64,000 nt of DNA from Patescibacteria group bacterium (lineage in GTDB: Bacteria > Patescibacteriota > Minisyncoccia > Phycocordibacterales > UBA9973): NCBI GenBank assembly GCA_040390725.1, contig JAZJXT010000006.1:64367-128366 (forward strand), written 5' to 3'. Position 1 is the first letter of the stretch. Each line of letters begins with the position of its first letter. The notes below the pieces were generated by a model, which was given only the letters and a program-made list of their open reading frames with translations, made no database searches and was not told where the DNA came from. Below are positions 5,742-22,884 of the stretch, one piece after another. A program made the position numbers and the translations under genes.

Positions 5742-7016
5742 TTATATCCAAAAAGAAACCATAGCAGAAATGCCGACTAGGGCCATGAGGAAAAAAGTTA
5801 TTTGGCCTATAATTTTAGTCAAAGGACGATTTTTATGTTCTCCCATTACTTTTTCATTTGAACTCAAGCCTAAAATAAGAAAAATAATAATAGGGGCAAC
5901 AAAGCCATTTAATACAGCTGAATAAATAAGTGCTTTGATAGGATCAAGGCCTATAAAATTCAGTAAAATACCTAAACCAACAGCAAGTATTATGACTCCA
6001 TAAAAAGCCATGGCTTCGCGCCATTTCCTGTAAAGACCTTCTCTCCAATCAAAATATTCCGATACAGCATACGACACTGAACCTGCGAGCACAGGTATGG
6101 CCAAAAGCCCGGTGCCTACTATGCCTATCGCAAAAAGAGTATAAGCGAAATTCCCGGCAAGAGGCTTTAATGCAAGTGCGGCATCGGATGCTGTAGTAAT
6201 ATTTGTAATACCATTTTTAAATAAAATAGCCCCGCAAGTGACAATAATAAAAAACATGACCGTATTTGAAAAAAACATCCCCGACCACACGTCGGTGCGC
6301 ATTTTTTTAATATCTTCTTTTATTTCAAGATCAGAAGAAATACCTTCGGTGATTTGCGGAGATAAATTATATTCTTCCACTTCTACAGAAGTCTGCCAGA
6401 AAAAAAGATATGGGGAAATAGTCGTTCCTAGAATAGCGCAAATTAAAATCAAATTATCTTTAGTAAAATGAAAACTCGGGATAACAGTATTTCTGAAAAC
6501 TTCCGCCCAATCCACAGACACTACAAGTGCGCAAAGAATATAAGCTAGGAGCACAAATGTTAAGTATTTTAAATATTTAGCATATGTTTTATAAGGAATA
6601 AAAATCTGCAAAGCGAGTGAAAGAATTGCAAAAAAAATCACGAGCAGGGCAAAATAAAATTTTGGAAAAAGCAATTGTGTGCCCTGAGCCATGGCACCCA
6701 AATCCGCACCGATATTAAAAACATTTGCAAAAAGTAAAAGTGCAGCACAAATAAAAAGAACCTTTTTGGAATAATATTTTTTTATATTAGTAGCGAGCCC
6801 GGTACCAGTGACGAGCCCGATACGCGCGCACATCTCCTGCACTACAGCCATCAAAGGGTATGTAAAAAGTGAAAGCCAAACAAATCCGAAACCAGTCGAT
6901 GCGCCCGCTTGCGAATATGTGGCGATGCCAGAAGGGTCATCGTCAGCAGCACCCGTGACTAGCCCGGGGCCTAAAACTTTCCAATAATTTTTTACTGTTT
7001 TAATTATTTTTTCCAT
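5742..7016 (-). CDS. NRAMP-family divalent metal (Mn2+/Fe2+) transporter, divergent
   Basis: 424 aa polytopic membrane protein; N-terminal GPGLVTGAADDDPSGIATYSQAGA resembles the NRAMP/MntH DPGN signature region. Confidence 0.55.
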   Translation of the reverse strand: MEKIIKTVKNYWKVLGPGLVTGAADDDPSGIATYSQAGASTGFGFVWLSLFTYPLMAVVQEMCARIGLVTGTGLATNIKKYYSKKVLFICAALLLFANVFNIGADLGAMAQGTQLLFPKFYFALLVIFFAILSLALQIFIPYKTYAKYLKYLTFVLLAYILCALVVSVDWAEVFRNTVIPSFHFTKDNLILICAILGTTISPYLFFWQTSVEVEEYNLSPQITEGISSDLEIKEDIKKMRTDVWSGMFFSNTVMFFIIVTCGAILFKNGITNITTASDAALALKPLAGNFAYTLFAIGIVGTGLLAIPVLAGSVSYAVSEYFDWREGLYRKWREAMAFYGVIILAVGLGILLNFIGLDPIKALIYSAVLNGFVAPIIIFLILGLSSNEKVMGEHKNRPLTKIIGQITFFLMALVGISAMVSFWI

Positions 7017-7799
7017 TTACTTCAAAGTTGCTGAGAAAATATTATACATTGGTATCACTTCTTTCGAAATAATTTTTGCTGAAAATGGCTCTGCCCAAGT
7101 AAAAGAAACATTTTGACTTTGATTTCTATCTAAAAGATCAATGGTGGTCGAACTAGCAGAAACAGCATTGCCGGAAACATCATATAAAATAACTACAACA
7201 TTCATATCAGGAATTCTAAATAAAGAATCATTTTTTATAACAGCGGACATCCCTGGACTAGTGTTTTCACCCTGAAGAGAGATCTGATCTACGGAAACTT
7301 TTACTTGATCTATTTTATCTTGCGAAACTTGCAACCAAGTCGGCATCTCAGTAAATTCAAAAGTAGTATAAACTGGAATAGAATTCCCTACATCTATGGC
7401 TGGCGCAAAAACAGCGAATTTGCCGGATGGTGGAACATAAGTATCCCCCTCGCGTGAGCCAATGTATAAATTGTCTTTATCCGCAAAACGAAATTTGTAA
7501 TGAAGTTTATTCACAACAGCATTTTGATTGTGATTTTCTAAATAAGCCACTGCATTGTAACGTCCGGGAACAACCCGAAAAGATTTACTCCAGAGAATAG
7601 AAATCTGATCTACCTGCAAAGTACAAGCTTTCAAGCAAGACCCCCCGCAATCTATCCCCGTCTCAGTGCCATTTTGTAAGCCATCCAAGCAAGTCGGCGC
7701 TTTGTTAAAATGCGGATAAATTATCAAAAAACCTAACATAGAAAAAAAGGCTATAACAATAACTAAATAAATAATCTGCCGTCTTAATGCCCAAGTCAT
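7017..7799 (-). CDS. membrane-anchored extracytoplasmic hypothetical protein
   Basis: 260 aa; N-terminal TM then a Cys-containing ectodomain (CLDGLQNGTETGIDCGGSC); stop abuts the NRAMP start. Confidence 0.45.
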   Translation of the reverse strand: MTWALRRQIIYLVIVIAFFSMLGFLIIYPHFNKAPTCLDGLQNGTETGIDCGGSCLKACTLQVDQISILWSKSFRVVPGRYNAVAYLENHNQNAVVNKLHYKFRFADKDNLYIGSREGDTYVPPSGKFAVFAPAIDVGNSIPVYTTFEFTEMPTWLQVSQDKIDQVKVSVDQISLQGENTSPGMSAVIKNDSLFRIPDMNVVVILYDVSGNAVSASSTTIDLLDRNQSQNVSFTWAEPFSAKIISKEVIPMYNIFSATLK

Positions 7800-7834
7800 A
7801 AGTTTATTATAACACTTTTTTTGATTAGTATTAT

Positions 7835-8629
7835 CTATGACAATAATACTCCCCCATCGACAACTATCTGCGAACCAGTCATATAACTGGAAAGATCAGA
7901 GGCGAGAAATAAAGCAACCTTGCCAATATCATCAGGGTCACCCATTCTTTTCATTGGAATTTTTTCAGAAAATTTTTTAACCATCTCTTCCATTTGCGAT
8001 GTCATCGTTTTGCCCGTGCCCGTACCAGGAGTAGCTATGCCACCCGGCGCGATAGTATTTACTTGTATATTATGCGGAGCGAGTTCCAAGGCTACATTTT
8101 TTGTAAAACCCCAAAGACCATGCTTTGATGCATCATAAACAGCAAGCCCGACAGAAGAAGGATGAACAGCATCTATCGAAGTGATGTTAATTATTTTTCC
8201 ACCCCTGCCTTGCTTTATCATTACTTCTGCCGTCATTTTAGTAAATAAAAATACACTTTCTAAATTTACTGCTAAAACTTTTTCAAATTGAGCAATATCC
8301 ATTTGCATTACTGGAATCATAGGATAAATACCCGCGTTATTTACCAATATGTCCACACCGCCATAAATTTTCATACTAAAATCAATAGCATTTTTTACAT
8401 CTACTTCTTTTGAAACATCAGCCTTTACAAAAGACGCTTTCCATCCATTCTTTTCCAGTTCTTTTGCTGAATTATTTCCAACTTCTTCATTTAAATCAAC
8501 AATGACTACATTTGCTCCGGCTTCAGCTAGACGATAAGCAATGCCAAAACCAATACCCATAGCACCACCAGTCACTATCGCTGTTTTTCCATTAAGGTAT
8601 ATAAGTTTTTCTAAAAGTATTTGTTTCAT
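7835..8629 (-). CDS. SDR-family NAD(P)-dependent oxidoreductase
   Basis: TGGAMGIGFGIAYRLAEAGANVVIVD Rossmann motif, NNAG, YDASKHG catalytic YxxxK. Confidence 0.85.
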   Translation of the reverse strand: MKQILLEKLIYLNGKTAIVTGGAMGIGFGIAYRLAEAGANVVIVDLNEEVGNNSAKELEKNGWKASFVKADVSKEVDVKNAIDFSMKIYGGVDILVNNAGIYPMIPVMQMDIAQFEKVLAVNLESVFLFTKMTAEVMIKQGRGGKIINITSIDAVHPSSVGLAVYDASKHGLWGFTKNVALELAPHNIQVNTIAPGGIATPGTGTGKTMTSQMEEMVKKFSEKIPMKRMGDPDDIGKVALFLASDLSSYMTGSQIVVDGGVLLS

Positions 8630-8655
8630 AAAATTATTTTTTTAAAATTTATAAT

Positions 8656-9930
8656 TTAATTCATTTTCATATTAATTTCTTTATTGTTATTATTTATTTG
8701 CGAGAAAATATCCGGATTTTTATCTCCTGAAACTTCAAGCGTTGCCCAAGCGCCTTTATTCATCCTCGCGAGAGCATGATCAACAAGTAAATATTTTCCA
8801 GGAACATTTACAGTAAATTCCACAATTGACGCTCCACCAGGCAAGACTTCTGTAGTCTGCACATTTTTCAAAATTGCCGAACCTGTACCTATCGCAGCTT
8901 CAGGATAAACTTTATCAAAAATTTCTCCTATGATATGAAAAGATGAAATAAGATTAACTCCCCCATTGCCGACATAAATGCGAATTTTGTCGCCGACTTT
9001 TGCTTGCAAACGAGGAACACTTTCTATCTTTCCATTAAAAACCACATAATTCGGATTACCAGCAAGCAATGCATCTGAATCAAAAGGTACAAGGCCTAGT
9101 TTGCCTATTTGCCCCGCAGTATAAAATTCTCCCTGCATTATATAAAATTCCTTATCGACTTTATCTAAAGCAATTTGTGAATCTTTCGGGTCTACCATTA
9201 TGAGTCCGTATTGCCCGTGAGAATTATGCGTGCTGACATTCGGCATTGCGCAATGATAAACATAAAGGCCAGAGTTCAATGCTTTCCATTTAAAAGTTTT
9301 TGTTTCTCCGGGAGCAACATCGGAAAGCATAGCGCCTCCACCTTGACCCGTCACCGCATGCAAATCAATATTATGGTGATGCAAACTCGACTTGTCATTT
9401 TCAAGAGTAATCTCCATTGTATCGCCTTCTCTGACTCGCAACATAGGACCGGGAACTTGTTTATTGTAAGTCCAATAATTCAAATAAATTCCAGGTGCAA
9501 TTTCGGAAATAACTTCTTGCGCTTTTAAATGTATTCTCACGATTCCGTCCGCATCAGGCTTTTGAGCTTCACTCGGCACAGAGTCAGGGCTTGCGGAAAT
9601 ATCAGCAACTTTTTCAAAATTATTTTTATGAATTAAAAAATCCAAAATTTTAGAAAATGGAATTGAAGGAGGAACCCCGCCCGGAGCGTCGGAATGCATA
9701 AATGCCGGCATTGCAAAATCCGGCGCATAAGTTCTGTTTGAAATAAGTCCGGCAAAAAACGCGATAACAAATAAAATTATCGGAACGTAAATACCTTTTT
9801 GTTTTACAACATTCCAAACTGCCGGCTTTTTTATTAAATAAATAAAAATTGACAAAACAGCTAAGGCACCGACTAGCGCCGAAATCATTTCAAAAATAAG
9901 ATATGTGAACATCTCTTTATTATACCTCAA
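8656..9930 (-). CDS. nirK: copper-containing nitrite reductase (NirK)-like, N-terminally membrane anchored
   Basis: HHHNIDLHAVTGQGGG and YVYHCAMPNVSTHNSHGQYGLIMV closely match the NirK type-1/type-2 Cu ligand motifs (HNxDFHAATGALGGG, YVYHCAPPGMVPWHVxSGMNGAIMV); about 110 aa of N-terminal TM segments. Confidence 0.75.
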   Translation of the reverse strand: MRYNKEMFTYLIFEMISALVGALAVLSIFIYLIKKPAVWNVVKQKGIYVPIILFVIAFFAGLISNRTYAPDFAMPAFMHSDAPGGVPPSIPFSKILDFLIHKNNFEKVADISASPDSVPSEAQKPDADGIVRIHLKAQEVISEIAPGIYLNYWTYNKQVPGPMLRVREGDTMEITLENDKSSLHHHNIDLHAVTGQGGGAMLSDVAPGETKTFKWKALNSGLYVYHCAMPNVSTHNSHGQYGLIMVDPKDSQIALDKVDKEFYIMQGEFYTAGQIGKLGLVPFDSDALLAGNPNYVVFNGKIESVPRLQAKVGDKIRIYVGNGGVNLISSFHIIGEIFDKVYPEAAIGTGSAILKNVQTTEVLPGGASIVEFTVNVPGKYLLVDHALARMNKGAWATLEVSGDKNPDIFSQINNNNKEINMKMN

Positions 9931-9940
9931 AAATTAGATT

Positions 9941-11530
9941 TTACTTAACACTATAAGTAAACATCATACCGTCTTCCATATGTTCAGCTATATGGCAATG
10001 CGCCATCCAATTCCCCGCATTTGATGCATCCAGTAAAATATCCACGTACTGCCCTGCCGGCACCAATACTGTATCTTTCCAAGCTAAGTTTTTTTCTTCG
10101 ATTCCATTTTTATCAATTACGAGAAACCTATTGCCGTGAAAATGCATAGGGTGTTGCATCGGGTGCGTAATATTTCCATCGTTTGAAATACGAATTTTTA
10201 CTTTATCATCTTTTTTGAAAACCCAATTTATATCCATATTTTCTTTTTTAGTTTCTTGGTCAATAATTTTCCAAGAAAAAAAATCAGTTCCTGTGTCGGA
10301 CATCATATTCATCATCTTGCTGTCATTGTCCCATTCAATACCATTATCCAAACCCATTACCTCGCCCATAGTTTCATTTTGCATCATTGTACCATCCGGC
10401 ATTTTATGTTGCCCGCTACTCATCATGTTGCCCATCGCCCCCCTCAGCCCTGATGTAAGCTCCAAATATTTATCCGGTGTTTTATTAAAGTAAAGTCGAA
10501 AAGAATCGATGCTGGAAATTGTTTCTGGATGTGAGCGGAGTTTTAGAAAAGTTTCTGAATAAGATTTATCAACATTTTTATCTGACACAATAATTTTCCC
10601 AAGACTATATATATTGTTCGGAGTTTTATTTTGCAATTCATAAGTGCCAGATTTATCAAAAAGAACTTCTACTATAGCGCGCTCTGAAGGGCCGAGAATT
10701 ACAGAGTCCACCCACGTATCATTTTCATAAGCACCATTATCAGCACCAACGAGTTTCATTTTTACTCCATTGATGCCGATATTAAAAGGACGCGCAGTGG
10801 AAGAATTAATAATATAAAAACGAGCGACACTGCCTTTATCAACATTCAAAGAATAATTTTCTTCACCATTCACAAGCATTACATTTCCATATCTACCCAT
10901 CATTATATGATCGGAAGATTTTTTATTAAATGGAACCACGCCATTTTTATCCATCAAAATATCATTCACAAACAAAGGCGCTTCCATATTAACTGAATCC
11001 CAGTAATTTATATTAGCTGGCTCTACAATATATGCTCCATATTGCCCGAGCGGTTGCGCATAATCCTCGCGAAAGTGCGGATGATACCAATATATTCCAA
11101 CATCTGGGAATTTTATTTTATAAACAAAACTTTCACCAGGCTTTATCGCATCTTGGTCAATACCTATCACGCCATCGTATTTATCTTCGAGGCGCACTCC
11201 GTGCGAATGTAGCGCAGTGTCTACATCAGTATTATTTTTAAAATTTATTGTAATCTCCGAACCTTGGGAAACTTTTATCGTCGGCCCAGGTATCATGCCA
11301 TTATATGCGAGCATTTTTGTCTCTTTGCCATTTACTATTTTTTTAACAATCTCCGCAGTCATATCATAGGTATCGCCATTCTTTAGCTCGACTGTCTGAC
11401 TAACCTTTGTGTCCGATAAATCATCCACATCTAGAGAAAAATATTCACTTTTTTTGTGAAATCCAAAATACAATAAAACACTAACAGCAACAATAATCAA
11501 AACTATAATTATTTTAAAATTTTTCTGCAT
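9941..11530 (-). CDS. multicopper oxidase
   Basis: Four Cu-binding motifs: HSHG, WYHPHF, HPMHFHG, HCHIAEHMEDGMM; N-terminal signal/TM. Confidence 0.8.
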   Translation of the reverse strand: MQKNFKIIIVLIIVAVSVLLYFGFHKKSEYFSLDVDDLSDTKVSQTVELKNGDTYDMTAEIVKKIVNGKETKMLAYNGMIPGPTIKVSQGSEITINFKNNTDVDTALHSHGVRLEDKYDGVIGIDQDAIKPGESFVYKIKFPDVGIYWYHPHFREDYAQPLGQYGAYIVEPANINYWDSVNMEAPLFVNDILMDKNGVVPFNKKSSDHIMMGRYGNVMLVNGEENYSLNVDKGSVARFYIINSSTARPFNIGINGVKMKLVGADNGAYENDTWVDSVILGPSERAIVEVLFDKSGTYELQNKTPNNIYSLGKIIVSDKNVDKSYSETFLKLRSHPETISSIDSFRLYFNKTPDKYLELTSGLRGAMGNMMSSGQHKMPDGTMMQNETMGEVMGLDNGIEWDNDSKMMNMMSDTGTDFFSWKIIDQETKKENMDINWVFKKDDKVKIRISNDGNITHPMQHPMHFHGNRFLVIDKNGIEEKNLAWKDTVLVPAGQYVDILLDASNAGNWMAHCHIAEHMEDGMMFTYSVK

Positions 11531-11550
11531 ATTTTTATTATACTACTAAA

Positions 11551-13587
11551 TTATAATTTAGCTCGTCGCAATAATATAGCATTAAATGCCACAATAATTG
11601 TAGAAAAAGACATAAATACCGCAGCGAGGACTGGTTGGAGTATTATTCCTTTCGATGCCAAGACTCCAGCTGCAAGAGGAATAGCCACGACGTTGTACCC
11701 TGTCGCCCAGAAAAGATTTTGAATCATTTTATTGTAGGTCAAACGAGATAAATTAAATATTTTTGGAATATCGCGCAAATCACTTTTTACTAAAATTATT
11801 CCCGCAGATTCTATCGCTACATTTGTACCAGCACCTATCGCTATACCTATGTCCGCTTGGGTAAGGGCCGGAGCGTCATTGATACCATCGCCCACCATAG
11901 CGACTTTCAAGCCACGACTCTGTAAATCTATTATTTTTTTAACTTTATCTTCCGGTAAAACTCGAGCAAAATATTCATCGAGGCCAATCTCATTCGCCAC
12001 GCGTTTTGCTGTCTCCTCACTGTCTCCGGTAATCATCGCGACACGCATGCCAAAAGTTTTTAGTTTTGCAATTACTTCTTTTGATTCCAAACGAACAGCG
12101 TCGGCTACTGCAATTTCTCCAATTTTTTCACCATTTTTCTCAACAACAATTTCATCCCCGCCATGAGTGCCGACAAAAATTATTTCACCATTAACTTTTG
12201 CTTCTGCTCCCCGACCGGGTATTCTTTTAAAATCAGTAGATGGTTTGACTTGAAGCATACGAATTTTTGCTTCTTCAACTATTGCCTTGGCTATCGGATG
12301 CTCAGAATTAACATTCACGGAAGCCGCAAGTATAAGTGCATCATCTGAAATTGCTGACGTAACTTTAAATTTCGCTTCAGTTAGCGTGCCTGTTTTATCA
12401 AATAAAACTATATTTATATTTCGCGCTGATTCGAGAGCTCGACGTTCTTTTACTAGTAAACCATTCCGCGCGGCGAGAGTCGTGGAAATAGATGCAACCA
12501 GTGGTACTGCGAGCCCGAGCGCATGAGGACAAGTGATGACAAGAACTGCGACGAGCCTTTCTGTCGCTGTCACTATTCCCCCACCGACAAAAATCCAAAT
12601 AGAAAATGTTAAAGCTCCTGCCACAATCGCAATGATAGTTAAATAAAAAGCTGCTCTATCGGAAAGCATTTGCAATCGTGATTTTGACGCTTGCGCATTA
12701 GCGACGAGCTTCATCACACCAGCAAGGAAAGTATCCTCACCTATTTTTTCAATTTCCACTTTCAAACTTCCATCACCATTTATAGAACCGGCGATAACAA
12801 ATGCGCCTACAGATTTTTCAACGGGACGGGATTCACCAGTGATCACTGATTCATTTAATTCTGATTGTCCTTCAATAATTTTTCCGTCAGCCGGTATTTT
12901 TGAACCTGGTTTTATTAAAACAATATCGCCGATTTTTAATTCACTTAATGAAATAATTTCGGTTTTATCACCACGAATAACTTCTGCTTGATCCGGCAAA
13001 AGTTTTGCAAGTTCTCGCAATGCACCTTGAGCGCCCTGCACAGACTTCATTTCAATATGATGCCCTAGAAGCATAATGGCTATCAATGATGCGAGCTCAA
13101 ATAAAAGATCATGACCCGTGCCGAATAAAATAGAAAAGAAACTATAAACATATGCCGAGGTTACGGCTATTGCGATAAGGGTCATCATGCCCGGCAGTTT
13201 CGCCCGCAATTCGCGATACGCACTGGTTAAAAAAATTAAACCGCAATAAAAAAATACAATACTACCTAAAATTAAAAGTAAATATTGCGAGCCGTAAAAA
13301 ACAGGTGCCTTTATATGAAAAAGCATATATGCCATTTCAGAATAAAAAAAGATTGGCACAGTCAAAACTAACGCAACCCAAAACTTCGTCAAAAATGACG
13401 AAGTTTTATGACCTGCATGCTTATCAAAATCCTGATTTTTCTCGTGTTCCTTGTGTCCTAAATCATTTTTTTTCTTCATCGGGACAAGATTCATCCCGCA
13501 TTCAGGGCACATCCCCGGCTTGTCAGATACAACCCTCGGATGCATTGGGCACGTGTATATTATGTTGTTTATATTATTTTGCATCAT
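11551..13587 (-). CDS. copA: heavy-metal (copper) translocating P1B-type ATPase, CopB-like with CPH motif
   Basis: DKTGTLT phosphorylation site, TGD, GDGINDAP, transmembrane CPH motif (ITCPHALGLAVP); N-terminal Cys-rich zinc-ribbon-like CPMHPRVVSDKPGMCPECGMNL. Confidence 0.9.
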   Translation of the reverse strand: MMQNNINNIIYTCPMHPRVVSDKPGMCPECGMNLVPMKKKNDLGHKEHEKNQDFDKHAGHKTSSFLTKFWVALVLTVPIFFYSEMAYMLFHIKAPVFYGSQYLLLILGSIVFFYCGLIFLTSAYRELRAKLPGMMTLIAIAVTSAYVYSFFSILFGTGHDLLFELASLIAIMLLGHHIEMKSVQGAQGALRELAKLLPDQAEVIRGDKTEIISLSELKIGDIVLIKPGSKIPADGKIIEGQSELNESVITGESRPVEKSVGAFVIAGSINGDGSLKVEIEKIGEDTFLAGVMKLVANAQASKSRLQMLSDRAAFYLTIIAIVAGALTFSIWIFVGGGIVTATERLVAVLVITCPHALGLAVPLVASISTTLAARNGLLVKERRALESARNINIVLFDKTGTLTEAKFKVTSAISDDALILAASVNVNSEHPIAKAIVEEAKIRMLQVKPSTDFKRIPGRGAEAKVNGEIIFVGTHGGDEIVVEKNGEKIGEIAVADAVRLESKEVIAKLKTFGMRVAMITGDSEETAKRVANEIGLDEYFARVLPEDKVKKIIDLQSRGLKVAMVGDGINDAPALTQADIGIAIGAGTNVAIESAGIILVKSDLRDIPKIFNLSRLTYNKMIQNLFWATGYNVVAIPLAAGVLASKGIILQPVLAAVFMSFSTIIVAFNAILLRRAKL

Positions 13588-13804
13588 GAGAACAAGAATT
13601 CATTTCTTCTTTCTTGTGAATTATACCATCAATGAAAAATCCTATACTAATTATTCCTGTTGCTATTGCATCGTTGAATAAATGCGCCTGATCCATACCT
13701 AGCAATGTTCCCTTTGTACTTTGTGTAATCCATGCACCGATTACGGAAAGCGTTGATAAAAGTAATGCGATGCGAGCGATTGTTATAGCGAATTTTGATT
13801 TCAT
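13574..13804 (-). CDS. small membrane/secreted hypothetical protein in the copper operon
   Basis: 76 aa with hydrophobic N-terminus, between csoR and the ATPase; overlaps the ATPase start by 14 nt (operon-style coupling). Confidence 0.3.
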   Translation of the reverse strand: MKSKFAITIARIALLLSTLSVIGAWITQSTKGTLLGMDQAHLFNDAIATGIISIGFFIDGIIHKKEEMNSCSHDAK

Positions 13805-13867
13805 ATATTTTATTTAAATGTTAATAATTAATAATAGAGAAAAAATTATTTATAAATTATTTATAAA

Positions 13868-14134
13868 TTATTTGCGTTTCAAGCGGTAAACTTTTAATAT
13901 TTCCTCTTTGGCTTTATTTTCTTTACCTTTTTTAATCTGGTCCACAGCGCAACAACTAAGATGATTCTCCATTAAAGCGTCTTCCACTCCAGAAAGAGCT
14001 TGTTTGACTGCCGAAGTTTGAGTAATGACATCTATGCAATATTTGTCATTTTCGACCATTTCCCGAATACCTCGAACTTGCCCCTCAATAATCTTGAGCC
14101 GTCTTTCCAACTTATTTTTAATATCTTTTCTCAT
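13868..14134 (-). CDS. csoR: CsoR/RcnR-family metal-sensing transcriptional repressor
   Basis: LERRLKIIEGQVRGIREMVENDKYCIDVITQTSAVKQALSGVEDALMENHLSCC carries the CsoR C-H-C metal-ligand pattern. The ORF caller extends to 14179, but that extension would cover the operator palindrome, so the start is placed at the Met at 14134. Confidence 0.8.
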   Translation of the reverse strand: MRKDIKNKLERRLKIIEGQVRGIREMVENDKYCIDVITQTSAVKQALSGVEDALMENHLSCCAVDQIKKGKENKAKEEILKVYRLKRK

Positions 14135-14146
14135 AATGGATAGTAT

Positions 14147-14163
14147 ATACCCCCAGGGGGTAT
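14147..14163. promoter_or_regulatory. candidate CsoR operator (perfect GC-rich inverted repeat)
   Basis: ATACCCCCAGGGGGTAT, a 17-bp perfect palindrome 13 bp upstream of the csoR start; resembles known CsoR boxes (TACCC...GGGTA type). Confidence 0.6.
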
Positions 14164-14243
14164 CTGTCAAGTAAAACAATAATGTCTACTATCCTTACAT
14201 ATGTAGACTTAGTAGACAAAAGAAATAATAATGATTAGTAATT

Positions 14244-14648
14244 TTAATTCACAACCCCTACCCCTTTCATCATAGGATGAATCTTGCAGTGATAACTATA
14301 CGTACCGGAATTTGCAAAAGTAAAACTAAAGGATTCACCCGGAGCGAGTGTCGGTGAATTTAAAAGATTATCAGAATCAGATGTGACTGTGTGTGGAACT
14401 GAATCATTATTCGTCCAAGTAACCTTTATGCCAGCTTTCACTGAAAGAGTAGCTGGATTAAATGCAAAATTTTTCATGCTTACTGATGCTGTTTTTGACT
14501 CTGGAACATTATTACTGACATTATTTACAGGAACGTTACTTTCCGGTGCAGGTGCCAAGGCTTTATTTGCATTATTTTTAAAAGCTAAATCATAAATTAC
14601 AAAACCAATTACTACTATTACCAAAACTATAATTATTTTTTTAGTCAT
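14244..14648 (-). CDS. cupredoxin (plastocyanin/pseudoazurin-like blue copper protein), membrane anchored
   Basis: 134 aa; N-terminal TM; type-1 Cu ligand pattern ...PHTV...YSYHCKIHPMMKG (H...C..H..M). Confidence 0.75.
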   Translation of the reverse strand: MTKKIIIVLVIVVIGFVIYDLAFKNNANKALAPAPESNVPVNNVSNNVPESKTASVSMKNFAFNPATLSVKAGIKVTWTNNDSVPHTVTSDSDNLLNSPTLAPGESFSFTFANSGTYSYHCKIHPMMKGVGVVN

Positions 14649-14671
14649 AAAATTTTAAATTATTAATAATT

Positions 14672-15073
14672 TTACTCGACACGAGCTAAACGCTCTTTTA
14701 TTTTTTCCAAAATATCTTTTAGGCTCCATTGAGACTTTACTAAATAGTATGCGGGCTCGTCTGTAGTAATTTGTTTCATTATTTTTTCTTCATCTGGCGT
14801 CAAATTAGTAAGCAATATAATGGGTACTTTTTTCCCATAATCATTAGATGCACGCAATTTATGCATCATCTCCATCCCATCCATTTTTGGCATTAAAATA
14901 TCCAGCAAAATAAGATCCGGCTTTTTTTCTATAGCCATCGCTAAACCCTGCTCCCCATCCATAGCTTCCAAAGCAATAAAACCTTCGTGCAATAAATTGT
15001 CGCGCAATGCCTCTAGTAGTATATGGTCATCCTCCACTATCAAAATTGTTTTTTGTTTTATATCATCTTCCAT
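14672..15073 (-). CDS. response regulator, receiver domain only
   Basis: 133 aa; LIVEDDHILLEALRDNL, DLILLDILMPKMDGMEM (phospho-acceptor Asp), no output domain. Confidence 0.85.
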   Translation of the reverse strand: MEDDIKQKTILIVEDDHILLEALRDNLLHEGFIALEAMDGEQGLAMAIEKKPDLILLDILMPKMDGMEMMHKLRASNDYGKKVPIILLTNLTPDEEKIMKQITTDEPAYYLVKSQWSLKDILEKIKERLARVE

Positions 15074-15080
15074 AAATTTA

Positions 15081-16763
15081 TTATAACATAGGTATTTTTA
15101 AATAAAATGTCGACCCTTTGCCTTCCTCAGAATCAAATGTTATTTCTGCGCCTATTTTTTTTGAAAGCATAAAAGAAACGTAAAGACCTATACCCATTCC
15201 CTCAGGCTTCACTTTCCCAGCATTTGATGCTCGATAGAATTTATCAAAAACATGTTTTGCTTCTTCTTTTGGTATACCTATACCATTATCTTTTACAAAA
15301 AACACGGCTGCACCTTTTTCTGTTTTAAAATCCAACACAACCTCCTGATCAGCCGGTGAATAAAAAATTGAATTTGATAAAAAATTAGTCAGAATACTTT
15401 TTACCACCTCCAAATCAGTTTTGACTGTAATTTTTTTACCGAAAACTGCATTATTTTTTAAAACAATATCATTTTTCTTAGCTACAGCCTCCACTAACAA
15501 AATAAGATCATCGTAAAAATTTAAAACATCAACCTCTTCTTCTTTGATGTTTGCAGTTGTACTATCTAAGCGAGTCACATTTAAAAGACTAACAACAAGC
15601 TTGATCATTTTTTCATTAGTCAAACTAATATTTTCCACATAAGATTTTTGTTTTTCATTTAGAGGCCCGAGCATGCCGTCTTGCAAAGTTTCAACTAGCC
15701 ATTTAGTACCGGAAAGCGGAGTGCGAAGCTCGTGTGAAGCCAATGATAAAAATTCCATCTGTGACTTTTTTAGCTCTTGTTCATATTTTAGTGATGCTTC
15801 GGAGGAGATCAGCCTTCTTGAAATATAAAAAGTAATAATGAGCAAAAGAGAAAATGCCACAAAAATAACACCGTAAACAACCAATATTGATTTGATAGTA
15901 TCTGCTTGCGCAACGAGAGACATGTTTGCCAAATTCCTTTTTATTTCAGAGATGCTAAAGATAGCCAAAAATACAAAAGGCGAAGCCAGAAGAAAAAAAA
16001 CAATAGCGCGAAGCGTCCCCTTTGGAGTAAATGAATAAAAAGGCTTTGAGGTTTCTGGAATTTTTTCAGAAATATTTTCCACATTTTTACTATTTTCTTT
16101 TTTAACATAAAAAGTAGCATAGAAAAATGGTAAGCCAAAAATACCAGCCGCAACTTTAAAAATAAAACCAAAAAGCATTGCTTGCGCTAATGCCGTGCCA
16201 GAAATAATGCCATAAAAAGCTATCGAAAAGAAAATTATACTATCAATGGCTTGACCTAATATGTTTGAAAAAATATCTCTTTGCCAAAGAGGAAGTTTTT
16301 CAGACTTTTGTGCCAACCGGCCATAAAACCAAATGTTAAACTTTTGAGCAAAAAAGTAAGCCGAGATGCTAGCTAGGAAAATTCTCGGGGCAAAAGTAAA
16401 AAGAGTATTAAGGGCTTGATTAACAGTAGCTGATGCCGACGAACCTATAAACTGCACAGTCAGCTGGCCCATCAATACGAAAAATACCGTAGCACCGAGT
16501 CCAACCCAAAAACTTTTCCTTCCCTCTTTTTCGCCATAATGCTCTATCAAGATATGCGCAGCTAAAAATACCGCAGCATAAAAAATATTACCCACGTTTG
16601 TGGTAATACCAAAAACAGAAACAAGCTTGGCGCCAAATACGCTTATCAAAATCAAGTTAATAGCAATAGAAGCATGGAGCCAACGCTTGCCTAAATTGAA
16701 ACAAATAAAAACGAAGCCAAAAGTAAGCAGGGCGGTAATCACAAAAATAAGCTCATTTATCAT
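15081..16763 (-). CDS. sensor histidine kinase with large polytopic N-terminal membrane domain
   Basis: H-box SLASHELRTPLSG, HATPase N/G boxes (VKDNGIGIP, GMGIGLYV); about 330 aa of N-terminal TM helices. Confidence 0.85.
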   Translation of the reverse strand: MINELIFVITALLTFGFVFICFNLGKRWLHASIAINLILISVFGAKLVSVFGITTNVGNIFYAAVFLAAHILIEHYGEKEGRKSFWVGLGATVFFVLMGQLTVQFIGSSASATVNQALNTLFTFAPRIFLASISAYFFAQKFNIWFYGRLAQKSEKLPLWQRDIFSNILGQAIDSIIFFSIAFYGIISGTALAQAMLFGFIFKVAAGIFGLPFFYATFYVKKENSKNVENISEKIPETSKPFYSFTPKGTLRAIVFFLLASPFVFLAIFSISEIKRNLANMSLVAQADTIKSILVVYGVIFVAFSLLLIITFYISRRLISSEASLKYEQELKKSQMEFLSLASHELRTPLSGTKWLVETLQDGMLGPLNEKQKSYVENISLTNEKMIKLVVSLLNVTRLDSTTANIKEEEVDVLNFYDDLILLVEAVAKKNDIVLKNNAVFGKKITVKTDLEVVKSILTNFLSNSIFYSPADQEVVLDFKTEKGAAVFFVKDNGIGIPKEEAKHVFDKFYRASNAGKVKPEGMGIGLYVSFMLSKKIGAEITFDSEEGKGSTFYLKIPML

Positions 16764-16943: not shown

Positions 16944-18092
16944 CTATATTTGGGATATTTTATTTTCATAATGATAAATATCAACATCATACTTTCGTTT
17001 CTTAATAGTCTCATCCAAGCCTTTTGCTGTAGGATACAATAATCCACTAACATTTAAATATGGCGATATGTGCTCATTCATTACCCAACCTTTATTTCTA
17101 ATTCTTTTTAATTTTTTGGGCTGTAATTCGTGTACCATACCAATAAACCCCGCTACAAGTTCTGCATAGGCAGACATATGTTTTACCTCACCAAAGGATA
17201 TTAAATCCTTATTTGGAAGAAAAGTGTCAGTAGAATACTGACTTAAGTCTAAATCATTCAATATAGAAATATCACAACATATATTGGCACGGTATTTACT
17301 TTTTTCACTATATGATTTTGTAGCTACTCTTAACTGATGTCTTATTTGGCATTTTTTACCATCTTTTTCACAAATCACATAACTATATTTATTAGGTGCA
17401 CCTTTTGTTGTAAACTTCAGCTTAAAAATTTTCTTTTTCTTAAAAACTGGGCTAATGATTTGAATTACCCATCCTTTCTTTTCGTACCATTTTATAGTGG
17501 AAGCAAAAGTATAAGCTTCAAATACTTGATTAACTATATTCCCAAAAGAATTTAAGCGAGGTTTTTCACTTTCAAAAAACTTTCTTAGTTTTAATTTTGC
17601 TTCGGCTTGGTCAAATAAATAATTATATAAGCGTTCATCATTTCTTACTTCCTTATAATGGTCAATAATTTGAGAAAAATATTTAGTATTTGATAGTAAG
17701 GCTTTTACATCATCACTAAGTAAATGTAATAATTTTTCAGCAAGTTTATCTCCCAGAACAACATTTTTATTTCTCCCTGAAAATTCTGTTTTCCCTAACC
17801 TAAATTTATCAATATTAAGTTCTTTTAGAATATCTACTGTGTCCTTAGTGGCACTAGCCCCATCTGCTAACATTTTTCTTGTATAAAACAAAAAACATAA
17901 TACAGTAGCTTCTTCCGCTATAGTTTTCATCCTAGCAATCTTCTCTTTCTTCTCTTTTGAGCTATCAATTTTATTTAAAATCCTATTTATATACTCTGAA
18001 GGAAATAAATTTTGCCATACATACGAATACAAAGAACTATATCTCATAGATATATATCTGGGTGCACTTTTTATTACATCAGAAATATTCAT
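16944..18092 (-). CDS. hypothetical protein, possible PD-(D/E)xK-like nuclease C-terminal region
   Basis: 382 aa; C-terminal CCDISILNDLD...SFGEVKHMSAYAELVAGFIG resembles a D...E-x-K nuclease core; weak and by eye only. Confidence 0.4.
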   Translation of the reverse strand: MNISDVIKSAPRYISMRYSSLYSYVWQNLFPSEYINRILNKIDSSKEKKEKIARMKTIAEEATVLCFLFYTRKMLADGASATKDTVDILKELNIDKFRLGKTEFSGRNKNVVLGDKLAEKLLHLLSDDVKALLSNTKYFSQIIDHYKEVRNDERLYNYLFDQAEAKLKLRKFFESEKPRLNSFGNIVNQVFEAYTFASTIKWYEKKGWVIQIISPVFKKKKIFKLKFTTKGAPNKYSYVICEKDGKKCQIRHQLRVATKSYSEKSKYRANICCDISILNDLDLSQYSTDTFLPNKDLISFGEVKHMSAYAELVAGFIGMVHELQPKKLKRIRNKGWVMNEHISPYLNVSGLLYPTAKGLDETIKKRKYDVDIYHYENKISQI

Positions 18093-18107
18093 ATAAGTGA
18101 TAAATTT

Positions 18108-18974
18108 TTAAGCCCTTGGTGTTGTATGCCACATACTTTGTAATATTGGGTAACTTATTTTTACTTCTGCAACAAGTTTTTCATATTCTGATTGGAACTC
18201 ACCAACAAATACCTTTGTATTACAAAGCTCTACCATAAGCTGTGCCATTATGTACATAAACTGAACTATCCAAAAAACCTCATTGTTCGTAGCACCACTC
18301 ATTTGATTTGTAAAACTTGGATGTGTGTAATTTGAATGTGACCTGTAATATTTATTATAAAAAGTCGATGGGCTATCTTTTTTCCAAAGTGCCAAAGTTT
18401 TTGATGATTGTATCGTAAAATATGGTTGATTAAAGATTTGTTCGAATCTCGGAAATGAAAAACCGTTCCTTTCTAGAAAACCATTAGAAAAAGAATTTAT
18501 ATCAGAAGGAAATGAAATATCCTCAGAAGAAAGTACGCCTCCCATAAGTTTTAAAAATCTGTCATATTCGTCTTTTAACTCAGTGCTCTCTATTGCAACG
18601 AAACGGAACATGTCGCTAAAATATAAAAGGTATTTACCTATAAAAATACCTAATTGGGTCTTTTCATCTTGATTAACTAAATAGAGTAATTCACCATAAT
18701 TTTCCAAAAGAATCCTTGTAAGCGGTATATAAAATTGAAAGTTCTTTAAATCTTCTTCTGCTTCAACTTTTTTAATTAAAAATTCATATTGTTGCCAAAA
18801 ATTCTTTAAATACAAATAAATAGCCTCGTTTTTTAAAAACTGCTTTTGTTCGTCTAGGGTTGAAAGGTTTTCAAATTTTATTAAAAACCTTTCTTCAATT
18901 TTAGTAACTATTTTTTGACCAATAGATAAAGAAAATTTTAAAGCAACTAATTGTTCTTTTATTTGAATAACCAT
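18108..18974 (-). CDS. hypothetical protein, co-oriented partner of the 16944-18092 gene
   Basis: 288 aa; 15-bp spacing to the downstream gene suggests an operon; no recognisable family. Confidence 0.4.
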   Translation of the reverse strand: MVIQIKEQLVALKFSLSIGQKIVTKIEERFLIKFENLSTLDEQKQFLKNEAIYLYLKNFWQQYEFLIKKVEAEEDLKNFQFYIPLTRILLENYGELLYLVNQDEKTQLGIFIGKYLLYFSDMFRFVAIESTELKDEYDRFLKLMGGVLSSEDISFPSDINSFSNGFLERNGFSFPRFEQIFNQPYFTIQSSKTLALWKKDSPSTFYNKYYRSHSNYTHPSFTNQMSGATNNEVFWIVQFMYIMAQLMVELCNTKVFVGEFQSEYEKLVAEVKISYPILQSMWHTTPRA

Positions 18975-19496
18975 AATTATATTATTTATTTTGTAACTTC
19001 CTTATTATCTCATATACAAACCTGTTTTAGTTTATTTTTTCAGTATATAGCTTTAAGCTTACAGAATAAACATTAAAATGCAACATATTTCCTCTCCTAA
19101 AAATTAAAAAATCTTAATACCTACCTTACCATACCCCTAAAACACAAAACTCAATAAAATAAAGGTATTTTACGAACTAGCATGTTAAGAAAAGATAAGG
19201 TTGAAGGTTAGCATACCCAACAATTTTAGATGCTTATTAAATAAAGATTTGTAGAAAAAGGGATGCTAATATTTGCTAACCTTTTCATATTATTTTTAAT
19301 TTATCACTTACTTAGATTTTGTACAAGCAAAAGGGAAAATCCTAAAAATAAAAAAAGCACACTAAAAAACGACCAAATTTGAGCCTTATTTTACAAGGCT
19401 TATTTAGGACGATTTTCGACCTTTGGAGTTATAATGCGTTTTACGGCTCTTGGAATTTTAAAACTGAGAATCATGACCTAGCACTATAATTAGTGC

Positions 19497-19841
19497 TTAA
19501 AACCCATTATGTTTTAAACATTTATCGTATTGAATTTTTGTAGCTTCTTTCGTTTCTGTTTTTTCTGGTGATGGTGGTCTTACCGCTGTATCTTTTTCTA
19601 GCATATAACAACTAAATGAACTTAGGCGACCTTGGCTATCACTACATTCTCCATTACTTAGTTTTATTTTATTTATATCAGCTTGTTCTTTTGTTATACC
19701 AATATCAGCAGGGGTTACTTCTGTAAACCAAGAACAATTCTTTTTTATCATTACTGGACGTAATTGAAACCAATAAAAAAGGAATCCTAAAACCAATACT
19801 ACGATTATTACTATTTCTTTATTTTCTTTTATTTTTTTCAT
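19497..19841 (-). CDS. small secreted/membrane-anchored hypothetical protein
   Basis: 114 aa; N-terminal hydrophobic segment; a hairpin (agcactataattagtgct) lies immediately after the stop. Confidence 0.4.
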   Translation of the reverse strand: MKKIKENKEIVIIVVLVLGFLFYWFQLRPVMIKKNCSWFTEVTPADIGITKEQADINKIKLSNGECSDSQGRLSSFSCYMLEKDTAVRPPSPEKTETKEATKIQYDKCLKHNGF

Positions 19842-19847
19842 ATAATT

Positions 19848-20963
19848 TTATTTAAACCAATTAAAGATTTTTTGATACCATTTTATTTTTCTTACTGGTT
19901 CTGGGTTAACTGGAATTTCTAAAACAGGAGCTACTGAAGGCATATTAAGCGTCGTTATATCTTTTGGTGTAACAAGAAAGTTGCCTGTTGAATTTTTAGA
20001 TGGAATAGAAATCTTTTTAGGTGTGATTTGATTTTGTATTTTTAACTCTACAGGAGCTACTATTGGAATTTGTACGGGTGTTTTTACTTGTGTTGGGTCG
20101 TCAACTGTTAAATTAAATGAGGTACTTCCAATTTCAACATCCTTAACCACGACCCTAGCTTTTAAAATAAAGACACCAACCTTTTTAGGAGTTAGCTTTA
20201 AAGCAAAAGCACCATTGTTGCCGTTAAAGTTTAGAAAACTAAGTTCGATACTTTCTGGTAGGTCATAGAATCTAAGCACTGGGGTCTCCTCAATAGGAGT
20301 ATAATTTATGTTGGCAGAGTAAGAAGTATTTATCATCGCATTTGGTAAATAATAGGTAGAAATTTTTAATGGCTTAGTGCAAGGAGGATTATTATTATCT
20401 GAAGGTAGTGAACTATCCCAGACACTTCCCGAACCGTTATACTTAACACACAAAGCATTGAATCTTATTTGAATACTAGTCTCAGCTCTTTCTGTTTGCT
20501 GTCTAAGGGTATCTTCGTGTTCTTGTAAGCACTGGTTGCGAGAAGTTACCGTAGCATTAAAAAGTTCTATACTTCTACGACATGAATCTAATTTATCTTG
20601 TCCTAACGTTGAAGAAGTATCAAAAGAAGAACCGAGCAAGCCACTTCTAGCACTCATAGCTCTTTGTGTGGCTCTTTGAGCATCAACTTCTTGCTGAACT
20701 CTTGCATAGTCTGATTCAGTTGAGCAAGATAGACCATAAACAATTTGTGGGCAAGAATCGTAAGAGGTAGTACGACATTCGTCAGTATCAGAAAAATAAA
20801 CAGAACTATTTACCCATCCATCATTACATTGAACCTTACCAGTATATGTTGCCCCCACTGAACAGTTAACACCACCATGATATGAACAAGCCCCCGAAGT
20901 TGCGAACACTGAGATAGTTGGAATAATAAAACTAAACAAAACAAATAATATAATTTTTTTCAT
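19848..20963 (-). CDS. secreted Cys-containing hypothetical protein
   Basis: 371 aa; clear signal peptide (MKKIILFVLFSFIIPTISVFA); Cys-rich N-terminal part, Pro/Val-rich C-terminal part. Confidence 0.5.
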   Translation of the reverse strand: MKKIILFVLFSFIIPTISVFATSGACSYHGGVNCSVGATYTGKVQCNDGWVNSSVYFSDTDECRTTSYDSCPQIVYGLSCSTESDYARVQQEVDAQRATQRAMSARSGLLGSSFDTSSTLGQDKLDSCRRSIELFNATVTSRNQCLQEHEDTLRQQTERAETSIQIRFNALCVKYNGSGSVWDSSLPSDNNNPPCTKPLKISTYYLPNAMINTSYSANINYTPIEETPVLRFYDLPESIELSFLNFNGNNGAFALKLTPKKVGVFILKARVVVKDVEIGSTSFNLTVDDPTQVKTPVQIPIVAPVELKIQNQITPKKISIPSKNSTGNFLVTPKDITTLNMPSVAPVLEIPVNPEPVRKIKWYQKIFNWFK

Positions 20964-20988
20964 AAGATTTTTTTAATTGATAAACCTA

Positions 20989-21178
20989 GTGAGTGGGTAG
21001 CAAAAATCCCACTACCAGAGGTGAAGTCTTACGACTTCCATGCAAGTTTCCCTGCACGACGCACGATACGCACCCTGATAATGGGGTTTCTAGTATCGTG
21101 CAATTTTTTCACCATGCCTCTATTTCTAAAGGTTTAGGCTACTGATTAAGTTGTAAATAAAGGATAACATATTTGTAC
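20989..21178. ncRNA. structured GC-richer element 1 plus conserved 30-bp box (candidate ncRNA / replication-origin element)
   Basis: Nested hairpins (gaagtc-ttac-gacttc; gcacgatac-N23-gtatcgtgc followed by a T-run) at 20989-21110, then the box agttgtaaataaaGgataacatatttGtac at 21149-21178; a diverged second copy lies at 21440-21617. Confidence 0.35.
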
Positions 21179-21419
21179 TTTTCTTACTATGCTTACGTAT
21201 TTTTTCTTGAACTAAGAAGTGTAATTTTAATGCCGTAGAAAAGTAATATAAATATGGATTAGCGGTGACAAAATTGTATTCTGATTCAGTTATTTTTAAA
21301 ATTGTATTATCAACACAGTAAAAATATCTTTTCTTATGTTGAATAACTACTGCAACATATTGGAAAACTTCAACAACATTACTTTCAACAAGACTAATAT
21401 TTAATTTTGTTATTTCCAT
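21126..21419 (-). CDS. hypothetical small protein (doubtful ORF)
   Basis: 97-aa ORF that overlaps the repeat box; may be spurious. Confidence 0.2.
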   Translation of the reverse strand: MEITKLNISLVESNVVEVFQYVAVVIQHKKRYFYCVDNTILKITESEYNFVTANPYLYYFSTALKLHFLVQEKIRKHSKKSTNMLSFIYNLISSLNL

Positions 21420-21439
21420 AACTTTATTTAATTAATAAT

Positions 21440-22687: not shown

Positions 22688-22705
22688 AGTATACTTAATT
22701 TATAT

Positions 22706-22882: not shown

Positions 22883-22884
22883 AT

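Follow-up and report, generated by a model that had tools for sequence, protein, structure and literature searches.

Organisation of the locus

The window examined here is a 64,000-nucleotide (nt) stretch of a 130-kb contig from the metagenome-assembled genome of a Patescibacteria group bacterium (assembly GCA_040390725.1, contig JAZJXT010000006.1, positions 64,367 to 128,366; GTDB order Phycocordibacterales, UBA9973). Between positions 5742 and 16763 of this window, open reading frame (ORF) listing and profile searches place eleven consecutive genes, all on the minus strand, with spacing that ranges from a 14-nt overlap to 110 nt. Among them are csoR, a copper ATPase gene, a gene for a multicopper oxidase (MCO) and nirK, which encodes a membrane-anchored copper nitrite reductase homologue whose type-1 copper site carries glutamine where an axial methionine is expected. 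An earlier sequence-only reading had described this interval as a copper/redox cluster on one strand with short spacers. All the families that it named are present, with the MCO, the CPH-motif P1B ATPase and CsoR correctly identified, although its title left out the three genes at 5742-8629. The features, with protein lengths in amino acids (aa) and transmembrane (TM) helices where given, are as follows.

5742-7016, minus strand: NRAMP-family divalent-metal transporter (PF01566, 1.2e-86)
7017-7799, minus strand: 260-aa membrane-anchored protein, a core Paceibacteria envelope gene
7835-8629, minus strand: cytoplasmic short-chain dehydrogenase/reductase, SDR (PF13561, PF00106)
8656-9912, minus strand: NirK, class II (AniA-like) two-domain copper nitrite reductase, 418 aa
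9941-11530, minus strand: three-domain MCO with an N-terminal TM anchor (PF07732, PF00394, PF07731)
11551-13587, minus strand: P1B-type copper ATPase with CopB (P1B-3) signature (TIGR01511, PF19335)
13574-13804, minus strand: 76-aa membrane protein, TM helix at residues 4-27
13868-14134, minus strand: CsoR, 88 aa (PF02583, 1.9e-24)
14142-14170, minus strand: sigma-70-type promoter and CsoR operator, TTGACA-17-TATACT
14183-14218, minus strand: hairpin and T-rich tract, a possible terminator (9-bp stem, -11.7 kcal/mol)
14244-14648, minus strand: amicyanin/plastocyanin-type cupredoxin, 134 aa (PF13473, PF00127)
14672-15073, minus strand: receiver-only response regulator, 133 aa (PF00072 alone)
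15081-16763, minus strand: Vut_1-fused histidine kinase (PF02592 1e-33, PF00512, PF02518)

A second, independent assembly of the same locus has identical gene calls, including an 88-aa CsoR and a 418-aa NirK. The TTG at 9930 is an over-extended NirK start, the public call being 418 aa; CsoR is likewise 88 aa in the public call, rather than the 103-aa ORF that begins with TTG. For the ATPase, the public call (664 aa) starts 14 codons later than the start used here, inside the CPMHP motif of the HMBD domain. The 678-aa start restores this domain, and the stop of the 76-aa gene then overlaps the ATPase start by 14 nt.

The interval is a mosaic of four parts on one strand, rather than a single operon or a conserved 11-kb machine. 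The first part comprises the Vut_1 kinase, the receiver-only regulator and the cupredoxin; the second consists of csoR, the 76-aa gene and the CPH ATPase behind the best promoter of the region. The Met-rich MCO and NirK form the third, each with its own leaderless-type promoter of the form TATAAT-N6-ATG, and the SDR, the core envelope gene and the NRAMP gene form the fourth. The sequence-only reading had overlooked the axial glutamine, the CsoR operator and the leaderless-type promoters.

NirK and its copper sites

Judged by sequence and predicted fold, NirK is a genuine AniA-class copper nitrite reductase. Its closest solved structure in a PDB search is Neisseria AniA (E 3e-92), with an alignment that is ungapped through the copper loops, and it scores 291 bits with the nitrite reductase model TIGR02376. 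The AlphaFold2 (AF2) model has a pLDDT of 88.5; in Foldseek comparisons it gives target TM-scores of 0.95 to 6the and 0.91 to AniA, which correspond to the two-cupredoxin-domain core. This catalytic core is about 48-60% identical to AniA (48% by Foldseek; 52-54% to Neisseria NirKs by tblastn). In a neighbour-joining (NJ) tree, the protein groups with NirK and not with MCO-only clades. The identity proposed in the earlier reading is thus supported.

All residues of the canonical type-2 site are in place (residue numbers follow a 424-aa numbering). The type-2 Cu ligands H191, H226 and H385 align with those of AniA; the catalytic D189 (in HNIDLH) and H332 and I334 (both in FHIIG) are also present, and catalytic and type-2 residues alike are nearly invariant in a 75-sequence alignment. 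Because the catalytic site is complete, the suggestion of a detoxification island that 'borrowed a NirK fold' is unsupported. The ligand alignment proposed as a check thus bears out the type-2 histidines and departs from expectation at one type-1 position. Where His-Cys-His-Met is expected, the type-1 site has H186, C227 and H235 with Q240; the axial Met is replaced by Gln, and the loop reads HCAMPNVSTHNSHGQYG in NirK versus HCAVAPVGMHIANGMYG in AniA. Axial Gln, as found in stellacyanin and in Met-to-Gln variants, is expected to lower the type-1 potential by about 100 mV or more. With a lower potential, electrons would pass more readily to the type-2 site, and a donor of lower potential would be needed.

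NirK is anchored in the membrane at its N-terminus, as the sequence-only reading had stated. Two TM helices (approximately residues 8-33 and 47-65) are followed by a linker that extends to about residue 110. The helices are separated by a lysine-rich loop, KKPAVWNVVKQK, from which an out-in-out topology is predicted, with an extracellular catalytic domain. Just after TM helix 2 lies a juxtamembrane motif, DFAMPAFMHS (residues 71-80). The AF2 model has pLDDT values below 50 for residues 59-74, which span the start of this motif, and offers no structural clue to it; the motif may act as a Cu(I)-binding arm.

The differences from AniA of Neisseria gonorrhoeae, a class II two-domain enzyme (1kbv, 5tb7), lie in the anchor and at the site of electron entry. 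The two enzymes share the type-2 triad, the catalytic Asp, His and Ile, and the length of the Cys-to-His loop. AniA is an outer-membrane lipoprotein with an axial Met, whereas the NirK of the window is held by a two-TM hairpin, continues into a DFAMPxFMHS linker and carries Gln as its axial ligand. Thermus scotoductus TsNirK (6hbe) shares the His2-Cys-Gln type-1 site and an amicyanin-like cupredoxin, which in TsNirK is fused to the enzyme; it is evidence that an enzyme with a Gln-type site can be active as a NirK (PMC6400189). TsNirK has three domains, Ser for the catalytic Asp and Val for the Ile, and matches only with E 3e-34; in contrast, the NirK of the window retains Asp, His and Ile, and the cupredoxin beside it is separate and tethered. 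The authors of the TsNirK study reported low activity and noted that a Gln-type site had never before been seen in NirKs (PMC6400189).

A Gln-type clade in the candidate phyla radiation

The axial Gln is shared by many relatives. A protein search with NirK returned at least 8000 homologues, and the motif HNSHGQ[YF]G, which includes the axial Gln, occurs in all 120 of the best among them. Across 160 fetched NirK loci, the type-1 axial residue is Gln in 32, Met in 122 and Leu in 6. Only five Gln-type proteins are found among the best 150 NirK representatives clustered at 50% identity. In an NJ tree of the catalytic core, calculated without bootstrap support, the Gln-type NirKs are monophyletic and come from lineages of the candidate phyla radiation (CPR) only; their sister clade is of the Met/Leu type and is made up of other CPR bacteria together with Anaerolineae, and both fall inside the AniA-like class. 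The two-TM anchor is common to the Gln clade and its Met/Leu-type sister. DFAMPxFMHS, by contrast, is nearly invariant in the Gln clade and absent from the sister clade.

In some NirK homologues (loci L020, L035 and L038), the axial position of the type-1 site is occupied by Leu, which does not act as a ligand there, as in high-potential laccases. One of these loci, L038, carries a Met-type and a Leu-type nirK copy side by side.

The earlier view that NirK is rare in CPR genomes does not stand. Parcubacteria/CPR NirK was described by Danczak et al. in 2017 (PMC5581439), the gene has since been reported in more than 140 CPR metagenome-assembled genomes from more than 50 lineages (PMC12931201), and the search made here adds its at least 8000 homologues. 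These two papers deal with the same organism group and enzyme family, and both propose a single-domain cupredoxin as the donor (plastocyanin in PMC12931201); the source of electrons for the cupredoxin is a gap that the CPR literature shares with the present locus (PMC5581439, PMC12931201). They differ from the present analysis in that they state that the copper ligands are conserved, and make no mention of an axial Gln, a two-TM anchor or a link to csoR or cop genes (PMC5581439, PMC12931201). The axial Gln corrects the published statement that all CPR NirK ligands are conserved. In the literature that could be searched, which leaves out most subscription journals, TsNirK is the only natural Gln-type NirK. 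By the same measure, the large group that combines an axial Gln and a canonical pocket with a two-TM anchor and a Met/His linker is apparently undescribed.

The csoR-ATPase unit

Upstream of csoR, the sequence reads TTGACA gATACCCCCTGGGGGTATATACT atccatt ATG. Its promoter, TTGACA-17-TATACT, is the best sigma-70-type match in 12.5 kb, with agreement at 11 of 12 positions, and the csoR ATG lies 7 nt past the -10 box (TATACT-N7-ATG); the csoR mRNA is probably leaderless. The 17-nt promoter spacer is filled by a perfect palindrome, ATACCCCCTGGGGGTAT, at 14147-14163, which touches the -10 box. This palindrome is unique in the window, where 0.02 would be expected. A TAC-X9-GTA motif with G-tracts defines the type-2 CsoR operator (PMC3902906), and ATACCCCCTGGGGGTAT fits TAC-X9-GTA. 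A regular-expression search for the CsoR box over all loci gave matches in the window and in one other locus only, L034. That locus, on a Paceibacterota contig, has a 66%-identical csoR with the same TTGACA/operator/TATACT layout, where it precedes MauE-like and DUF305 genes.

The CsoR protein, for which RicR is the closest NCBIfam model, has a Cu(I)-binding triad of C33, H58 and C62 with the canonical 25/4 spacing, the same as in the C36/H61/C65 pattern. The 76-aa protein encoded next has no match in Pfam, NCBIfam or PHROGs.

P1B-3 ATPases are recognised by CPH in TM4, YN(x)4P in TM5 and MSxST in TM6. The ATPase of the window has CPH353, YNVVAIP631 and MSFST659, together with DKTGT397, and scores 575 bits with TIGR01511 (cutoff 397). 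At its N-terminus is a zinc-ribbon-like HMBD domain (CPMHP...CPEC; PF19335, 2.6e-11), followed by a short His-rich stretch with four His in 17 residues (GHKEHEKNQDFDKHAGH). Its PDB matches include Legionella CopA (4e-123) and the nucleotide-binding domain of A. fulgidus CopB.

From these sequence features, the prediction that pump expression is CsoR-gated and Cu(I)-induced is well supported. The arrangement resembles the csoR-copZA operons of Bacillus subtilis and Streptomyces lividans in the repressor family, the C-H-C triad and the TAC-X9-GTA palindrome with G-tracts, which overlaps the promoter of a Cu(I) ATPase operon. Unlike those operons, the window has no CopZ, its ATPase is of the CPH/CopB type with HMBD instead of HMA, the mRNA is probably leaderless, and MCO and NirK genes follow directly.

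Multicopper oxidase and cupredoxin

All four copper motifs are present in the MCO, namely HSHG108, WYHPH148, HPMHFH460 and HCHIAEHMEDGM511 (HCHIAEHMEDGM). A Met-rich insert precedes domain 3 (12 Met in residues 356-420), where CueO has its own Met-rich region. The best NCBIfam models are CueO and CopA, both with scores far under cutoff (NF008205, 141 bits versus 525), and the nearest solved relatives are bacterial laccases, McoC and CueO; there is also a weak PDB match to 3g5w. The N-terminus is a TM anchor without a twin-arginine motif. On this evidence, the MCO is a predicted cuprous oxidase, with a CueO-like function at best, and not a CueO orthologue. The ncgABC-nirK cluster of Nitrosomonas europaea, in work attributed to Beaumont et al. 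2005, reportedly also has an MCO gene directly upstream of nirK and serves nitrite tolerance; it is said to encode a two-domain MCO and c-type cytochromes and to be controlled by NsrR. What the two loci have in common is the MCO gene directly upstream of nirK. The window differs in its three-domain Met-rich MCO, its cupredoxin partner and a nearby CsoR.

The cupredoxin consists of a TM helix (residues 1-27), a linker of about 30 aa and an amicyanin-type domain. Its copper ligands are H86, C121, H124 and M127, and the loop C-x2-H-x2-M is amicyanin-like. The earlier reading had pointed to pseudoazurin as the classic NirK donor. The amicyanin model TIGR02657 (E 1.6e-15) fits far better than the pseudoazurin model TIGR02375 (E 1e-3; 18.9 bits, cutoff 109.85); scores with the amicyanin and plastocyanin models exceed the pseudoazurin score, and these too are below cutoff. 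In the PDB, the best match comes from a three-domain NirK (9cck, E 6.5e-18), in the cupredoxin domain fused at its C-terminus, and further matches are the TsNirK domain (6hbe), the Nitrosopumilus blue copper protein 5fc9 and amicyanins. The protein is thus amicyanin/plastocyanin-like rather than a pseudoazurin, and the part of the claim that survives is that it is a plausible donor. By analogy with the fused enzymes, the tethered cupredoxin is likely to be the direct electron donor of NirK. Beside other Gln-type nirK genes, no homologue of it was found at E <1e-4; L002 and L004 have unrelated Cupredoxin_1 proteins.

Transcription signals

Shine-Dalgarno motifs are almost absent from the window (1 of 50 genes). 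Exact TATAAT boxes are found exactly 6 nt before ATG at nine genes, where 0.04-0.05 would be expected; the starts concerned are 4750(+), 7799, 9912, 11530, 15073, 16763, 26841(+), 31705 and 40926(+). Within the eleven-gene block, the genes with this geometry are those for the kinase, the regulator, the MCO, NirK and the 260-aa protein; regulator and 260-aa gene have an extended form, TGtTATAAT-N6-ATG. Among the Gln-type nirK genes of other loci, 7 of 20 have a -10-like box 6-7 nt upstream. The geometry points to widespread leaderless mRNAs, as far as can be judged from sequence.

Downstream of the cupredoxin gene lies a hairpin with a T-tract, whose loop exceeds the length that a consensus terminator scan accepts, so that the scan did not report it. 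It is a weak call, and possibly closes the kinase-regulator-cupredoxin unit at 14183-14218. In none of the gaps from csoR to the NRAMP gene was an intergenic terminator found; the matches of the scan are intragenic and occur at the rate expected by chance. In our reading, the kinase gene is a separate transcription unit, the regulator gene, probably with that of the cupredoxin, is another, and csoR, the 76-aa gene and the ATPase gene form a CsoR-controlled unit.

Conservation and genomic context

All eleven proteins were compared by tblastn with 159 NirK loci (79 genome and 80 metagenome contigs). The eleven-gene block was found among these only in the window's own contig copy (L160), with partial analogues in L004 and L042. 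A csoR-ATPase-nirK layout occurs in one of 31 related Gln-type loci, or about 29 independent ones. That locus, L004, has csoR, an HMA-type ATPase gene (copA), HMA-DsbD_2, Cupredoxin_1 and nirK; L002 and L080 have HMA-DsbD_2, Cupredoxin_1 and nirK. In L042, a Met-type locus from Peribacteria, the genes are csoR, ATPase, nirK and MCO. Elsewhere, csoR and an ATPase gene are divergent from nirK (L046 and L094), an ATPase gene is on the strand opposite to nirK (L026 and L084), or csoR lies 4 kb downstream of nirK (L034). Genes for ArsR-type helix-turn-helix (HTH) proteins are near Gln-type nirK in L001, L003, L011, L012 and L013, directly upstream in L001, L003 and L012. Frequent neighbours of Gln-type nirK in other CPR genomes are PNPOx-like and class I ribonucleotide reductase genes.

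A compact, dedicated nitrite-reducing module, as one of the two earlier proposals had it, does not agree with this distribution: the cluster is unconserved among the 31 Gln-type loci, the kinase pair and the 260-aa gene are unrelated to it, and the MCO and nirK genes have -10 boxes of their own.

Upstream of the kinase gene, at 16944-24399, is a low-GC block (GC 0.28-0.33). A large serine integrase is encoded at 22885-24399 (phrog_95, E 2e-63) and a DnaD-like initiator of replication at 21945-22505, and four further ORFs of the block gave no match in any of Pfam, PHROGs and PADLOC. The block is probably a mobile element that has become integrated right beside the copper cluster. Serine recombinases are also found near nirK in L015 and L020. 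Downstream of the cluster are core genes (murB, FKBP, SIMPL, secE-nusG-L11). The cluster thus borders a mobile or variable region, in keeping with a composition that is specific to its lineage.

Elsewhere in the window, no respiratory or NO-handling genes were found; type IV pilus, ZnuABC, cell-wall and Cas1 genes are present. The Cas1 gene is at 59740-60762 (+), and a tandem-repeat finder detected no CRISPR array in the window. Just past the integrase, at 24489-26795 (-), is a P2-type ATPase gene (Cation_ATPase_C) that is unrelated to the copper pump. Three tandem genes at 29957-31705, 31721-33415 and 33896-35596 (-) encode Cys-rich paralogues of about 570 aa with no Pfam match, of which the compared pair is 45% identical; in L034, a homologue lies between nirK and csoR (11620-13275).

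Other genes of the block

The kinase-regulator pair, the SDR, the 260-aa protein and the NRAMP protein are outside the copper/nitrite function. The N-terminal half of the kinase is a complete Vut_1/YhhQ queuosine-precursor transporter domain (TIGR00697, 117 bits versus a cutoff of 51), followed by two TM helices, HisKA and HATPase_c. In NCBI, the protein goes under the plain name 'queuosine precursor transporter'. Such fusions are rare, with about nine protein clusters in a database of 5.8 billion proteins, and the remaining ones have PAS domains in addition. The regulator is a receiver (PF00072) over 133 aa with no DNA-binding output domain. In all three genomes checked (L163-L165), a Vut_1 kinase is paired with a receiver-only regulator and has no copper or nitrite genes nearby. 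The two-component pair named in the earlier reading is therefore real, and its control of the cluster was rejected, since the regulator lacks an output domain and the pair recurs without copper genes.

No evidence was found that ties the SDR to copper or nitrite, and its gene is not next to nirK in other CPR loci. The 260-aa protein has a single TM helix and a Cys-rich motif. It has more than 1100 homologues, of which the 120 listed share 61-76% identity and have lengths of 258-272 aa, in most cases exactly 260. On two long contigs of relatives (L161, L162), its gene is followed by ftsW/rodA (gap of 0-3 nt), folD and PAP2, and in the window it abuts the NRAMP gene with zero gap; its displacement from the ftsW context indicates a local rearrangement. 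As a core gene with ftsW as its usual neighbour, it was rejected as a candidate copper or nitrite protein. The NRAMP protein scores 66 bits with NF037982 (cutoff 50), and the MntH models are below their cutoffs.

Proposed mode of action and alternatives

The interpretation favoured here, with a probability of roughly 0.58, is that a copper export and metallation unit lies beside extracytoplasmic cuproenzymes, and that NirK and the cupredoxin form a minimal nitrite-to-NO module. Apo-CsoR, bound to the TAC-X9-GTA operator in the promoter spacer, would block transcription; cytoplasmic Cu(I) would bind to Cys33, His58 and Cys62, and CsoR would leave the DNA. The ATPase would then export Cu(I) across the single membrane to its outer face. 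The MCO and nirK genes, each with a basal promoter, may in addition be boosted by copper-induced read-through, which is the weakest link of the scheme. MCO, NirK and cupredoxin are anchored without a twin-arginine motif and must therefore fold and acquire copper outside the cell. ATPases of the CtaA/PacS and CcoI types are metallating P1B pumps, and by analogy the copper for all three proteins would most plausibly come from the neighbouring pump. The Met-rich oxidase would convert exported Cu(I) to Cu(II) and so remove excess Cu(I). NirK, presumably a trimer that is held on the membrane by six helices, would reduce nitrite to NO at its canonical type-2 site, and electrons would pass via the tethered cupredoxin into the low-potential, stellacyanin-like type-1 site with axial Gln. 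Copper-dependent nirK expression has been reported in Bradyrhizobium, where CsoR acts only indirectly (PMC10457146); the physical arrangement found here would allow direct coupling between CsoR and nirK.

Several observations weigh against this interpretation. With respect to the enzyme, the TIGR02376 score of 291.3 bits is 5 bits below the cutoff of 296.3 (E 1e-86, 319 of 326 model positions), and TsNirK, the sole characterised natural Gln-type NirK, is a weak enzyme with other deviations (PMC6400189). Neither a quinol-linked nor an NADH-linked cupredoxin reductase is encoded in the window. As to regulation, no second CsoR box was found in the window at up to 3 mismatches, including near the MCO and nirK genes; each of these has an exact TATAAT 6 nt before its ATG and so may be transcribed independently of CsoR. 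The csoR-ATPase-nirK layout is absent from 30 of the 31 Gln-type loci, which makes any functional coupling optional, and among the relatives an ArsR-type regulator upstream of nirK is commoner than this layout. Finally, the enrichment of P1B ATPases in 372 kb of Gln-type nirK flanks (3 versus about 0.37 expected; Poisson P about 0.007) is a rough figure, as it assumes a density of one per Mb and includes near-duplicate loci (L084/L085, L002/L080).

Some of these observations lend weight to a copper-detoxification locus with passengers, in which csoR, the 76-aa gene, the ATPase and perhaps the MCO cooperate, while NirK and the cupredoxin landed in a variable, integrase-flanked region and are expressed and metallated independently. 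Besides the lack of conservation in 30 of 31 Gln-type loci, this would account for the TATAAT-N6-ATG of nirK, which has counterparts in the -10-like boxes of 7 of 20 relatives. Gene order around nirK is also highly variable, serine recombinases lie near it here and in L015 and L020, and the displacement of the 260-aa core gene from its ftsW context betrays local rearrangement. Counting against it, at least three further lineages (L004, L002/L080, L042) have copper genes of differing kinds immediately upstream of nirK and on its strand, and two more (L046, L094) have them divergent from it. Such links exceed the approximately 0.4 expected by chance, and the MCO and nirK genes follow the ATPase gene without an intervening terminator. 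Independent passengers are considered unlikely, although a substantial share of the probability stays with them.

A different main redox role for the NirK homologue, be it oxidase activity or Cu(I) oxidation, NO or hydroxylamine chemistry, or host-directed NO production, is improbable. Such a role would suit a score just below the NirK equivalog cutoff, the atypical type-1 site, the adjoining copper oxidase gene and a window with no obvious respiratory chain, and the physiological role of CPR NirK has been questioned before (PMC5581439). Against it stand the presence and near invariance in the family of all residues needed for nitrite reduction, and the 55-60% identity to AniA across the catalytic core. 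From what is known of cupredoxin chemistry, a lower type-1 potential would moreover favour electrons toward nitrite and disfavour NO oxidation. Least probable is a single eleven-gene operon, as the title of the earlier reading implies, driven from upstream of the kinase gene and placed under two-component control in response to copper or nitrite. One strand, short gaps and a TATAAT-N6-ATG at the kinase start would be compatible with it, but the regulator has no DNA-binding output domain and the Vut_1 kinase with its receiver-only partner recurs in three other genomes without copper or nitrite genes. In addition, a hairpin/T-tract and a strong CsoR-operated promoter lie between the cupredoxin gene and csoR, and several internal genes have -10 boxes of their own.

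Beyond the export and metallation scheme itself, the Gln-type TM-hairpin NirKs of Patescibacteria could constitute a distinct functional class. They would combine a low-potential, stellacyanin-like type-1 site and a canonical Asp/His/Ile pocket with a DFAMPxFMHS motif that captures Cu(I) from an adjacent exporter or docks a membrane partner, and would run without bc1 or cytochrome c via a tethered cupredoxin; at the present locus, supply and expression would be tied to the CsoR-gated pump. This proposal is tentative, and the balance of probability is against it in this full form.

Implications

The components belong to standard families and the cluster as a whole is ordinary; its arrangement is lineage-specific. 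NirK is the sole recognisable nitrogen-cycle enzyme in many CPR genomes, and its role there is debated. The altered electron-entry site, fixed anchor and Met/His linker of the dominant CPR clade offer a handle on the identity and potential of the donor. A CsoR operator ahead of a block that runs into nirK bears on whether copper gates nitrite reduction in single-membrane, periplasm-less organisms, and the csoR-ATPase-nirK arrangement bears on whether copper exporters may double as metallation devices.

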